Source: a virus
Direction: 5' to 3' (one strand)
Virus record (IMG/VR): IMGVR_UViG_3300047160_009070
Location: 1-64,000 of that record
Length of the DNA: 64,000 nt
Shown here: in pieces, positions 10,483 to 62,112 of the stretch
Layout: each line of letters begins with the position of its first letter
How positions within the stretch are numbered: the first letter of the stretch is position 1
Translations under genes and position numbers: made by a program
The notes under the pieces: generated by a model
What the model was told of the DNA's origin: nothing
The model's input: the letters and a program-made list of their open reading frames with translations, nothing else
Databases searched by the model: none

Positions 10483-10555
10483 TGCGGCGTAGAGCAAACG
10501 GTAGCTCGCTGGCCCCATAAGCCGGAGGTTGCGGGTTCGAGTCCCGTCGCCGCCA
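10483..10555 (+). tRNA. tRNA-Met(CAT), initiator-like, no encoded CCA
   Basis: TGCGGCG/CGCCGCC acceptor with 1:72 mismatch, GAGC/GCTC D stem (A11-U24), CTGGC-CC CAT AA-GCCGG anticodon arm (CAT 10516-10518), GCGGG TTCGAGT CCCGT T arm. Confidence 0.92.
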
Positions 10556-14074: not shown

Positions 14075-14201
14075 ACCGGACCACTTTCCCTCGGGGTGTG
14101 GTTTTGGTCCGGTTCGGTTCGCAACTTTGCGTCCGTTCTCTCCGCAAAGTTGCGTCCGTTCGCGGTCTGGAGTCCCCCTCCGTTTCTGTGCGGCTGGAGA
14201 G

Positions 14202-14230
14202 TTGCCCAACCCACGGCAACGCCGTATACT
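14202..14230 (+). promoter_or_regulatory. Sigma70/HrdB-type promoter
   Basis: TTGCCC-N17-TATACT; ATG 6 nt downstream (14237). Confidence 0.65.
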
Positions 14231-14364
14231 GTTGGTATGGTGGTGCCGGTGGGTCAAAGCGTGGTTTTTTTCTTGGCATTGTCCACGGTCAAGGTCGGCC
14301 CAGCAGCACACCACAGCTGACCTGCCCACCGGACCGCCAACTGTTCTTTTGAGGAGGTGATGCC

Positions 14365-15137
14365 ATGGCCGATCGGACCCTCATCGCATGGACCGACCAC
14401 ACCTTCAACCCTTGGATGGGTTGTTTCAAAGTGTCTCAGGGCTGTACTTGACCCACTGCTACGCGGAGACGATGACCAGCGGGCGGATGGGTCTTGACGT
14501 GTTCGGCCATGACACCTCTAAGCGTCAGCGTACGTCTGAGCGGACGTGGAAGAACCCGTTGCGCTGGAACCGCGAAGCCCAGGCGAACAACGTTCCGGCC
14601 AGGACGTTCTGCGCAAGCTTGGCGGACGTGTTCGAGGACGCCCCGGGACCGAACGCTTGGCGCAAAGAGTTGTGGGAGCTGGTGGACGAGTGCCGCTGGC
14701 TGGACTGGCAGATCCTGACCAAGCGCCCGGAGAACATCGCCCGGATGCTCCCGGACGATTGGGGTGACGGCTGGCGCCATGTGTGGCTGGGCACGTCGAT
14801 CGAGGACAACCGGGTTGCGGAGCGCTCGACGATCCTGACGCAGGTGCCGGCGTTCGTGCATTTCGTCAGCTACGAGCCGGCGATCGGTCCCGGCGACGAG
14901 ATCCCGCTTGAGGGTGTCGACTGGTTGATCTGCGGCGGCGAGTCCGGCCCGGGGTTCCGCAAGATGGATTTGGGCTGGGCGATCGACATGTGGGTTCGTT
15001 GCCGCGACGTCGGCGTCCCGTTCTTCTTCAAGCAGGATTCGGGGTATCGCACCGAGATGGGCATTGACGCTTTGGGTGTGGTGGTGCGCGAGTACCCGGT
15101 GTCGTGGGAGCGCCGGGCTGTGCTCGGCCTGTTCTGA
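14365..15137 (+). CDS. DUF5131 (phage Gp37/Gp68, radical-SAM-like) protein interrupted by a 5-nt stop-containing insert
   Basis: SD GAGGAGG; MADRTLIAWTDHTFNPWMGCFKVSQGCT, then TGA, continuing in another frame as HCYAE...FCASLADVF...WQILTKRPEN...VSYEP...WLICGGESG...FFFKQ. Confidence 0.85.
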
Positions 15138-24221: not shown

Positions 24222-24229
24222 GTACGGTT

Positions 24230-24299
24230 GCACCTGCGGCTCATGGGAGCCGGGCCGGGTTCGCACCGGTCAGAGGCGGTTCGATTCCGCTCAGGTGCA
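24230..24299 (+). ncRNA. tRNA-like cloverleaf (nominal anticodon TCG) downstream of capsid gene
   Basis: GCACCTG/CAGGTGC acceptor + A; GCTC-ATGG-GAGC D arm; GCCGG-GTTCGCA-CCGGT anticodon arm; GGCGG-TTCGATT-CCGCT T arm. Confidence 0.7.
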
Positions 24300-24320
24300 T
24301 TTCAAACCAAGGAGGACGCA

Positions 24321-35329: not shown

Positions 35330-38300
35330 ATGACAGAGTACCTTTGACCTCGGCGATGCCGTCCTCGAGTTCGACGGGGACATCGAGCCGCTCGCGAGGA
35401 AGGTCCAGGAAGCCCACCAGATGGTCAAGACCGGCCTGGACGGAATGGGCCGTGAGATCCAGGGCTTCACCGCACTGGCGATCCGTTCGGGGCAGGAGCT
35501 CGAGCTTGCGTACATCCAGCCGCTGAAGCGAGGCTTCGACGAGCTTTCGCTCGCCGTGTTCGCCTACCACGAGCGTCTGACCGGGGTGATAGGCGTCACG
35601 CACGAGGCTGCGGGCGCGATGCTGCAGCTGGGTGCCGCGTCGTCGCAGATGGCGGAGCAGACCGTCCGTGCGCTCGCCGACGTGCGGGGTGCTGTGGAGA
35701 GCACGGCGCTGCTGATCATCGCGGCTGCCCGCAGCGAGGTTGACGCGATCAACGAGGTGACGGCCGCGTATCTGCGCCAGGCGGCGGCTGCTCGTCTCGC
35801 GGGGGGCAGTGCCGGGGTGACGCTCGCGGCGGGTGCGCTTCCGCTTCCGTCGTTGCGGGCGGGGGTTGCGCCGGCTGCTCTCGGCCCCGCCCCGGGGCAG
35901 CCGCTCGCCGGCAACTACCGGATTTGGGGTTCGCGTGGTGACGCCGCCCCCGGCTCGATGGTGAACCCGGTTGTGGTCGCGATCGAGTCCGGCCAGTACG
36001 CCGGTCTCGGCGCACGCGCCGCGGCGCTCGGGTTCACGGCGGGCGCCCAGCCGTCCGGGTCGATCCTCGATCCGGTCACCGCCCAGGCTTTGCGTGACAT
36101 CGCGCAACGCCAGATCGCTGCGGCGCCGGCGTTGACGCCGGGGGAGATCATCACTGCCGCCAGGGCGCTGCCGCAGGAGGACCTGCGCCGGCTGGTGGGA
36201 ATCCTGGACCGCCCGATCGCCGGCGGCGCCGGTCCACCGATCGACTGGCGGCCGGACCCGACGTTCCGGCGTGCCGTCCAGTCGGTTTTGGCGGGCGGTC
36301 CGTTCGCCGAGCCGAACGTGTCGGTGTCGGGTTTGCAGCGGTCGCTGCAACTGCAGTACACGCAGGCGCTCCAACTCCAGAGACAGCTTCAGCAGGTGGG
36401 TCTGATCGAGTTGCGGTCCGGCGGCGGGTTCCGGGTTGTTCAGCCGAAGGTGCAGGAGTACCAGCGCCTGATGTTCGGCGCGACCGGTCCTGCGTTCCCG
36501 GGCGCCAGCTATGGCCGTGCGCCGACGGGCGAGATGGCCGGGATACCGCAGCCGGCCGAGCGACTCGACATTTTCGGGGCGCTCGCCGAGCAGCAGGCTG
36601 CACAGGAGGCGCAGATCGCACAGCAGCAGGCTGATCTCGCGAGACAGGAGGCGCAACTCGGCCGGCAGATGTCGCTGTTCGAGGGGATGGCCCGCCGCGG
36701 CGGGATCTGGCCCGGTGTCGTGGCCGCGATGGGTCCCGAGCCGCTCGGGCCGTACGGGCCCGTAGGCCGGTTCGCGTACCGGCCTTTGGGGGTTCCGGGT
36801 GAAGCCGAGACCGGGTATGAGGCTCTGAGGGCGGGTGCGACCGGTGCGACTGCCCGCCCGACGTGGATGGGCGGGACGGTCCTGCCGCCTGAGCCGACGG
36901 TCAAGATCGACGCTGCGCAACTCGCGGCGCTTGAGGCTGCTCTGAAGGAGGGCCGGATCAGCCAGACGCAGTTCGATGCGCTGTCCTCCGCGCTCGCGCT
37001 CGGCGGCACCCCCGGTGCCCCCGGCGGGGGAGGCGGAGGCGGAGGGGTTCCCCCGGTGGCTGTCGGTCCACCCGGTGGCGGAGGCGGCGGAGGCGGCCGT
37101 GCCTTGTGGCCTTTGGCGCTGGCTGCTCTGTGGGGACGCCCGACTCTCGGCGCACGAATCCCGTTCACTCCGTTCTCGCTGCCGATGGCCGGGTTCGGAA
37201 GCCTCGGCTCGCTCGCCGGTCTCGGCCCGGAGCATTGGCTGATGACCGCTTTGGGGATCGGCGGGTTCGCTGCCGCCGGCGCCGCCGGCGCGGGTGCGAT
37301 AGCGCTCGGTTCGGCTGGCACGCTCGCGGCCGGTGCCGGCTCGAACGCGGCTGTGATGTCGTCGACGATCAAGGACACCCAGACGCTGTCGCAGGCGATG
37401 ACTGCGGTGCAGACGGCGCAGCAGAACGTGGCGCAGTCCCAGGCCGCGTATGCGGCGGCGGTTCACCAGTTCGGGCGCAACTCGACGCAGGCGACAGCCG
37501 CCGCGAGCCAGCTGACGGGCGCCACCAACACGCTGACGACCGCCCAGCAGAACTACAACAGCACCGTCAGCCAACTCGGAGGCCCGCGCGCCCCGGGTGT
37601 GCAGGCGGAGATCCAGTTGGCGAAACAGACACAGGCGCTCAACAAGTTCTGGGACCAGCAGACGCAGATGGCCCGGGTCGCCGCGGTGCACGTGCTCGAG
37701 CAGGTGGTGCAGCTGGGTCACGACTACGTGCCGCTGGTGGCGCAGGCGGCGCAGCAGAACCTGACGATCATCAACCAGGACATCAAACCGTTGTTCTCAT
37801 GGCTCGAGGGTCCGCAGGGAAGAGGCATCTTCCTGCAACTCGAGGACCAGTTCAAAAGGACTCTGCCGACCGCGATCGACGCGTTCTCCAAGGCGATCGA
37901 GGTTGTGCTGCGGGTCACGCAGGTCGCGTCCCAGTACAGCGGCACGTTCGTCTCCTGGCTCGACAAGTTGGTGAACCGCTTCAACAGCATGTCGAACGTC
38001 CAGTTCGCGAACACGATCCGGCGGCTCGTCGGCGACTTCCGGGACTGGGAGAGGTTCGCGAAGGCGATCGCCACCGACCTGTATCTGCTGTTCAGCCAGG
38101 ACGTCGGCACCGGCAAGTCGATCATCACCACGCTCACCACCATGCTCGAGCATCTCGGCAAGTGGGAGAGCTCAGTGAAGGGGCGCGAGGAGATCCGCAC
38201 GATCTTCGACGTGCATCTGCACGAGGTGCAGGCGCTGCTCGGGATCATGCCGAAGCTGTTCGGCGTGTTCGGCCAGCTCTACATGACGTTGGCGCCGCCG

Positions 38301-61310: not shown

Positions 61311-62112
61311 ATGCGATTCGTGGACCGACCGGGGCCTGCTAGACCGAACATTCTGATCTACGGGCCCCCGTAAGGAACCAAAGGTGGGTAAGACGGCGGG
61401 TGCGTGCTCGTCGGGTTTGGGAACGATCCTGTTCAACCTCGATCTCCCGAACGCGACCCGTTATGCCCGTTCCAAGAAACGCGATCCGGACGGCAGGGTG
61501 ATGGAGGTCGAGTTGCCGCCGTTCGAGGAACGCAAACTCCCGGTCTTCGATCTGATGGGCGAGATCTCCCGGTCGGTCGCCGATCCGCGCCAGGAGGTGG
61601 CGGAGGTGGTGGTCACCGACCCGATGGGCGAGCTTTACCGGCGTCTGCTGGAGGAGGTGTCGAACCGGTCGATCCATCCGACGTTCGATCACCGGCTGTG
61701 GGTGACCACCCAGATCGAGCGTTACTGCCGGTTCCTGTGCGAGCTGCCGACCATTTCGGCGATCTTCGTGTGCCACGAGCTTCCGGTGAAGGACGAGTCG
61801 ACCGAGTCGTTCGAGCGGTTGCCGTTCACCGGCACCACCAACATCAATCTCGGCGCCAAGTTGATGTCGATGGTGGATGTGATCGCCTACGCCGGCGTGT
61901 CGGTGCAGGAGAACGGCGCGAAGGAGTACGGTGCCCAGTTGATCATCGACCAAGGGCGCCGCGGCGGGGACCGGTTCGATTGTCTGGGGGACTATCGCCC
62001 GCTGGATTTGAAGGACTGGTTCGCGGCGATCGCTGGGGCGGAGGTTGCCGATCTCAGCGCTGAGACCAGTAGCGAGGAGCCTGCCGGGAAGCCGGTGGCG
62101 GAGGCGGCGTGA
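61311..62112 (+). CDS. AAA_24/Sak4-like ATPase interrupted by a 10-nt stop-containing insert in Walker A
   Basis: MRFVDRPGPARPNILIYGPP-TAA...KVGKT; VVVTDPMGELY, IFVCHE, MVDVIAY; flanked by exonuclease and SSB-like genes. Confidence 0.85.
62050..62067. repeat. 18-bp palindrome copy 3 (17/18 match)
   Basis: GATCTCAGCGCTGAGACC. Confidence 0.7.

Follow-up and report, generated by a model that had tools for sequence, protein, structure and literature searches.

The DUF5131 gene of an uncultured phage is interrupted by five surplus bases, which sit between the codons for the second and third cysteines of its three-cysteine motif. The best explanation of this break, with a probability of roughly 0.6 as judged from the sequence, is a +5 translational hop, that is, short-distance bypassing. 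Read in this way, the gap would add a form of short translational bypassing not described before, 5 nt long and led by UGA. What speaks for a hop and against decay of the gene is the recurrence of the gap in a relative, the restriction of such breaks to one clade, the retained conserved residues, and a parallel in a Sak4-like gene of the same phage. Natural short-distance bypassing has been long expected and barely documented, the published cases being T4 gene 60 and its homologues, the byps of yeast mitochondria, and the UUA-led gaps in the terminases of a few Streptomyces phages. If the proposal is true, a 5-nt UGA-led hop lacking evident helper signals would mean that the minimal "stop-hop" of the 1987 E. 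coli constructs is used or tolerated in nature, and the DUF5131 site would be a very small recoding cassette.

The window, meaning the whole stretch of 64,000 nucleotides that was analysed, is the first 64 kb of an IMG/VR record of 95,319 bases with a G+C content of 66% and an estimated completeness of 82%. The + strand of the record carries tightly packed genes. Uninterrupted frames of 2566, 1438, and 1122 codons run through the contig and argue for a clean assembly of the record. Among cultured phages, near and distant DNA searches with the window returned only a weak match to a Tetraselmis virus, and the terminase of the phage is without a cultured relative. The DUF5131 gene lies in the vicinity of genes for a methyltransferase, a lysozyme, and terminase subunits; it is present in single copy, a second one having been searched for in the 95-kb record and not found. 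Its parts are given below.

14351 to 14357, + strand: Shine-Dalgarno sequence GAGGAGG, 7 nt ahead of the start ATG of the N-part, read directly
14365 to 14448, + strand: N-part of DUF5131, starting with ATG at 14365; 28 codons, with the first two cluster cysteines, ending with the putative take-off codon
14446 to 14448, + strand: putative take-off codon ACT (Thr), preceded by TGT at 14443 to 14445
14449 to 14453, + strand: five surplus bases TGACC, namely the stop TGA (14449 to 14451) and then C; the related contig L019 has the same eight bases at the same codon
14451 to 14453, + strand: putative landing codon ACC (Thr), the last three bases of the gap
14454 to 15137, + strand: C-part of DUF5131, opening with CAC and then TGC (third cysteine); 227 codons, in the +2/-1 frame

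The stop codon of the C-part (15135-15137) overlaps the ATG of the next gene. Both parts match Pfam PF07505 (DUF5131 / Gp37-Gp68) separately and above its gathering cut-off of 28.9 bits. The N-part covers profile positions 2-25 (34.8 bits, E 1.6e-8), and the C-part, from its second residue, covers positions 26-221 (172.3 bits, E 1.6e-50). Nothing is lost from the profile between the two matches, which meet at positions 25 and 26, so that the DNA has an excess of exactly five bases. Codons for all three cysteines can be read, the third being out of frame, and a motif on one chain requires that 5 nt be skipped. The first-pass annotation had read the site as a hop from ACT to ACC across UGA-C, restoring C-T-H-C and the spacing of the family in an otherwise intact gene. 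Its statements on the sequence are all borne out. The two Thr codons and the UGA-C between them are found at the positions listed, and the last two cysteines are spaced as Cx2C in 229 of 229 related loci with a parsable motif. Skipping TGACC gives C-T-H-C, whose T-H pair is found in 12 intact relatives. Moreover, the C-part of the window gene is unchanged at all 66 conserved columns, defined as those at least 95% conserved in intact relatives. The take-off and landing codons do not overlap and are both readable by one tRNA, ACC at +5 being the nearest downstream cognate codon. By the authors' own estimate, a random 5-mer after ACT would provide a matched landing codon together with an A-site stop about once in 250.

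DUF5131 has been placed in the radical SAM superfamily, in megacluster 5-2, next to spore photoproduct lyase (PMC9477430). The structure model of a close intact relative, P0004 (pLDDT 90.8), has spore photoproduct lyase, DesII, and SuiB as its top PDB matches, and the only match in NCBIfam, to "radical SAM mobile pair protein A", is weak. As DUF5131 is of the radical SAM type, the gap parts the second from the third ligand of the presumed iron-sulfur cluster. Judged from the superfamily placement and the fold model, the gene is one that needs its N-part, and the C-part by itself should be inactive.

Relatives of the gene were read as DNA at 251 loci from viral, metagenome, and GTDB collections, and the N- and C-parts lie in differing frames at three of them (L019, L015, and L055). 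Three gapped genes, those of the window, L019, and L015, were compared as DNA, and the exact gap is common to two of these. L019 is a 1.4-kb soil-metagenome contig encoding a protein 60% identical to that of the window, and at the window's codon it reads TGC ACT TGA CC CAC. It carries a second gap 16 codons upstream, between conserved Thr and Trp, which reads ACC TGA CT TGG. An A-site UGA followed by C is found at both L019 sites and in the window. When the three segments of L019 are joined by two +5 hops, a perfect family N-terminus results, and family residues are kept in all three. The L019 protein recurs in a separate Logan/ENA assembly as P0095. The upstream gap of L019 has the look of a 5-nt tandem duplication with imperfections, an origin that would make codons appear matched.

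The gene in L015 (585-640) has an extra T in a TGC TTT C run, and its second cysteine is followed by CGA TTA CGT, in which matched Arg codons surround UUA, a codon used 0 times among 9410 codons of the window phage. Additionally, a 6-nt insertion in L015 creates a 10-bp palindrome, ATTACGTAAT, plus an in-frame Cx4C. The change in L055 is a plain one-base deletion. Other loci differ in other ways: an in-frame stop lies about 49 codons into the DUF5131 match of L121, the gene being otherwise intact, and the three-cysteine motif has Cys-to-Tyr in L043 and Cys-to-Ser in L082. A gene for an HNH_3/NUMOD4 homing endonuclease (L015:59-520) ends 9 nt before the start of the broken DUF5131 gene, and a homologue (L086:1537-1890) lies directly upstream of an intact one; these placements suggest nuclease homing at the 5' end of DUF5131 genes. 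Scanning of IMG/VR for DNA patterns of the gap motif, at the one site or the other, returned nothing, or chance matches outside DUF5131. A protein search with the wrong-frame leader peptide gave one irrelevant candidate only, and one with the L019 query gave almost no further clade members.

Relatives seen as proteins comprise the 120 best database hits (clusters), arranged in a tree built from their C-domains. Database proteins were scored as broken if their start lies beyond the cysteine motif or if they enter the motif in the wrong frame. The comparison with related DUF5131 genes proposed in the first-pass annotation, besides yielding the L019 gap, shows that such breaks are specific to one clade, where 12 of 28 clusters are affected, as compared with 1 of the 92 elsewhere (Fisher P = 3e-8, among the 120 best hits). 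Within the same 120, eight clusters start at the conserved Met that follows the cysteine motif. The nearest neighbour of the window protein, P0005 (75% identical), is truncated too. P0007 has a wrong-frame read-in to the motif that back-translates to ACC TGA CN at the upstream site. Back-translation also implies a 5-nt surplus at the window's site for P0008 and an 8-nt surplus at the upstream site for P0024, with no evident matched codons in either. In the P0024 cluster, whose 22 members come from many JGI and ENA contigs, two different types of broken allele occur. Its C-domain is near-identical to that of L015 and its 5' end is quite different, a contrast that points to recombination where the gene begins. 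In the C-domain tree, broken genes are intermingled with intact ones. Fourteen further database proteins, which start at a Met just before the first cysteine, are scattered tree-wide and were not counted as breaks.

Divergence on the level of a pseudogene, which the first-pass annotation had named as speaking against a hop, is not seen in the C-parts: those of the window and L019 have a dN/dS of 0.30, within the 0.18-0.38 of intact pairs. Conserved-column deviations (mean, of 66 columns) amount to 0.73 in broken genes (n=15) and 0.66 in intact ones, with none in the window, and the 15 broken genes have no second lesion in about 215 downstream codons. Over the 19 codons that lead up to the gap, the window has its nearest sequence in L019 and vice versa, rare codons are common to both, and their N-parts differ by 6 synonymous and 3 nonsynonymous bases (P = 0.01 against neutrality). 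This substitution pattern fits an N-part that is still translated and joined. As the two are mutually nearest in the N-part and share rare codons, their common gap may be one event spread by recombination and not a product of long co-inheritance; the data suggest that the gapped 5' segment moves between genes by recombination.

Under the proposed mechanism, ribosomes would start at the ATG at 14365 and translate 28 codons, and then pause; the P site would hold peptidyl-tRNA-Thr (anticodon GGU) on the rare ACU codon, and the A site UGA-C, at which termination is poor. Among the Thr codons of the phage, ACT is the least used (4.7%). tRNA-Thr(GGU) reads ACU and ACC, the former through G-U wobble, and UGA-C is a weak termination context that is used by prfB. 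In a share of the ribosomes, the anticodon would release, the mRNA would slide by five bases, and the tRNA would re-pair with ACC. This re-pairing would swap the wobble G-U for G-C, with decoding restarting at CAC. This should yield a DUF5131 protein of 255 residues in which the Cx6Cx2C iron-sulfur motif is normal, and its predicted tryptic junction peptide is VSQGCTHCYAETMTSGR. The other ribosomes would terminate to give a 28-residue peptide, and the amount of enzyme would be lowered or gated in this way.

RNA folding around both sites gave z-scores of -0.9 to +1.6 and nothing common to the window and L019. Near the gap, the search for an internal Shine-Dalgarno sequence met just weak GG-rich runs 7 nt upstream, and ARAGORN found no phage tRNA-Thr or odd tRNA. 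Since no conserved hairpin, clear internal Shine-Dalgarno sequence, or phage tRNA-Thr was found, hopping may be inefficient, in which case the site may work as a throttle. In E. coli constructs, hops without assistance proceed poorly, at about 1% or less. The purpose of the hop could be dosage control, or the tolerance of an insertion that shields the motif DNA from a homing nuclease; its occurrence, efficiency, and purpose are all what we infer. The pattern ACYTGACY is not enriched in the window, where it occurs twice against an expectation of 6; the occurrence besides the gap is in frame. The tRNA-like genes reported by ARAGORN are a tRNA-Arg(tcg)-like one right after a capsid-region gene (window 24229-24300), a tRNA-Met (10483-10555), and a tRNA-Gln (L255:8428-8522).

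Several other routes across the gap were rejected. Reading of UGA as a sense codon does not restore the frame, and TGA terminates most long genes. Transcriptional slippage lacks a homopolymer run, and phase variation lacks a repeat tract. A +1 shift of the prfB type does not apply because the needed shift is +2/-1, and because CUU is not cognate for tRNA-Thr.

The 95-kb record was also scanned for short leaders that have a start and a ribosome-binding site and end at a stop, where a cognate codon follows within 15 nt and a long frame becomes open from that point only. The scan returned three sites only, with stops at 14449, 35345, and 61371; the first is the DUF5131 gap, and the other two are as follows.

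61311 to 61383 of the window: split site of a gene for a Sak4-like ATPase (PHROG 124), with a 20-codon leader ending in CCG and the remainder in another frame
35330 to 35425 of the window: beginning of the tape-measure-like frame of 2566 codons, with a Shine-Dalgarno sequence, ATG, four codons, and CTT TGA C, the stop being at 35345

The Sak4-like gene reads GGG CCC CCG TAA GGAA CCA AAG, with the stop at 61371 (candidate hop site 61368-61383), and a hop from CCG to CCA over 10 nt would give the Walker A motif GPPKVGKT. In about 40 Sak4-like relatives, found by searching 1.8 billion cluster representatives, Walker A is contiguous and lies about 20 residues from the start. Two of the relatives, P0161 and P0183, have N-termini that lack the hydrophobic strand and the beginning of Walker A and resemble wrong-frame read-ins; other phages may have Walker A gaps at the same site. 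Decay does not readily account for the fact that, in a genome that is otherwise clean, two enzyme motifs are each interrupted by a stop with matched codons on either side. At the tape-measure site (35342-35350), the long frame could be entered by a prfB-like +1 shift or by a CTT-to-CTC hop (+7), and the next standard start in it is near 35421.

The main rival to the hop is that an insertion of five bases has inactivated an accessory gene that the phage can do without, the allele persisting or recurring untranslated, and the insertion being perhaps a scar of escape from a homing nuclease or of repair. Several observations are in keeping with such a null allele. The lesions differ among relatives (+1, +5, and +6 in DNA, and +8 inferred), broken and intact genes interleave in the tree, an HNH_3/NUMOD4 gene adjoins the broken gene of L015 as its homologue adjoins the intact one of L086, and a recent break would be undetectable by pairwise dN/dS. 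However, in three gaps that were read directly a slow codon is flanked by a matched pair (ACT/ACC; ACC/ACT; and, with TTA between them, CGA/CGT of L015), and the Sak4-like gene contributes a fourth matched-codon gap. The same gap, moreover, occurs in genes that are only 60% identical and whose N-part changes are mainly synonymous, and the 15 broken genes are without an excess of conserved-column change or a second lesion. The neighbours of the window's DUF5131 gene gave no nuclease matches, and HNH_3, HNH, and GIY-YIG profiles found no match in the 95-kb record. Taken with this evidence, a dead gene is an unlikely explanation, although one to be reckoned with.

Translation might also stop at UGA and restart, either at the overlapping UUG (TTGA, 14448-14451) or at the ATG at 14475 or 14490, giving a 28-residue peptide and a separate C-domain that act apart or assemble non-covalently. 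TTGA does resemble the ATGA stop-start overlaps between genes of the phage, and gene callers started P0095 at that UUG and others at the conserved Met. This arrangement would, however, put the ligands of one iron-sulfur cluster on two chains, and in L019 on three (13, 16, and 233 residues). With a family HMM made from 101 intact relatives, the joined protein outscores the isolated C-part by 66-85 bits. None of the starts at 14448, 14475, and 14490 has a well-placed ribosome-binding site, and it would be left unexplained that the codon after YUG always matches the codon before UGA. Two separate products are accordingly quite improbable.

An ordinary -1 or +2 frameshift at ACU UGA, giving C-T-L-T-H-C or C-T-T-H-C, respectively, is more improbable still. 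Either move restores the frame, and the in-frame Cx4C of L015 indicates that a longer spacing may be tolerated. The point made at first reading, that a -1 shift would add two residues between the last cysteines, proved correct, the result being Cx4C; yet Cx3C and Cx4C are otherwise absent from the 229 loci. As read from the sequence, neither move allows cognate re-pairing, for tRNA-Thr cannot re-pair at UAC (-1) or UUG (+2). Furthermore, the hop product scores 457.4 bits on the family HMM, higher than both the +2 product (451.8) and the -1 product (450.9). Lastly, an assembly or sequencing artefact is very unlikely: the window is a metagenome-assembled contig, but the same eight bases occur in the much-diverged L019 contig, whose protein is found in a second assembly, the contig of the window has its three long uninterrupted frames, and a 5-nt non-repeat insertion is an unusual type of error.

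The proposed +5 hop has its nearest known counterpart in the large terminase of Streptomyces phage phiHau3 and in two prophages, which have UUA-led gaps of 7-10 nt (Smith 2013; Antonov et al. 2023, PMC10732093). Bypassing of the phiHau3 terminase gaps has been proven by mass spectrometry in E. coli (PMC10732093). As in the DUF5131 gene, a short frame-breaking gap lies inside a highly conserved motif of a high-GC phage, with a slow A-site codon after the take-off codon. In both systems a hop is preferred to a frameshift since the junction residues are invariant, and one gene may carry more than one gap. The systems differ in that the slow codon here is the stop UGA and not the rare sense codon UUA, so that control by a bldA-type tRNA is inapplicable. 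Moreover, the gap here is only 5 nt, the gene family is another one, and no flanking RNA structure was found. CGA TTA CGT in L015 represents a UUA-type counterpart within the DUF5131 family.

T4 gene 60 has a 50-nt bypass within the MobA element, and in natural gene 60 homologues the codons for take-off and for landing match via U/C wobble (Manning & Atkins, bioRxiv 10.1101/2022.08.31.505936). It resembles the DUF5131 site in having a stop or hungry codon after take-off and an insertion at invariant residues of an enzyme. However, its gap is ten times longer and requires a nascent-peptide signal, a take-off stem-loop, and an internal Shine-Dalgarno sequence, and a homing endonuclease travels along with it. 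No take-off stem-loop, clear internal Shine-Dalgarno sequence, or homing endonuclease was found in the window, and an HNH gene adjoins only the gapped relative L015. In the mitochondria of Magnusiomyces capitatus, likewise, many short inserts (byps) are neutralised by bypassing, several of them without perfect matching. The byps differ in being mitochondrial inserts of 27-55 nt with an unused A-site codon and relaxed decoding.

Stop-hops and +5/+6 hops have been made synthetically in E. coli (Weiss et al. 1987, as cited in PMC5009743 and PMC10732093). They are alike in that peptidyl-tRNA crosses a stop and pairs again with a matched codon lying a few bases downstream, but they come from engineered constructs and have a low yield. 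According to a 2016 review, no natural in-frame stop-hop was known. The +1 frameshift of prfB (RF2) at CUU UGA C offers a further likeness, as an early UGA-C context could sense release-factor activity, and a literal CTT TGA C stands at codon 5 of the tape-measure frame in the same phage. In contrast to the DUF5131 site, prfB shifts by one base onto an overlapping codon and requires a Shine-Dalgarno sequence 3 nt upstream of the shift codon; at the DUF5131 site, +1 neither restores the frame nor permits re-pairing.

A wider proposal is put forward tentatively, with the odds somewhat against it. Within one soil-phage clade, DUF5131 genes would have tiny coding gaps in and beside the cysteine motif, measuring 5 to about 8 nt and numbering at most two per gene, and these would be crossed by unassisted UGA or UUA hops. 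The same device would serve in the Walker A motif of the Sak4-like gene and perhaps at the start of the tape-measure gene. It would set or time output phage-wide, for example by sensing host release-factor activity, or would represent nuclease-proof insertions in essential motifs. This raises the question whether the gaps act as gates on expression or as protection of conserved DNA against homing nucleases. They also matter for annotation, as gene callers split or truncate genes of this kind, and about a dozen clusters of the clade start past the cysteine motif. Upstream of the window's DUF5131 gene, a 290-nt non-coding stretch (14075-14364) holds a paired repeat with an inverted core (14122-14163), and a promoter-like TTGCCC-17-TATACT lies near 14205-14233.
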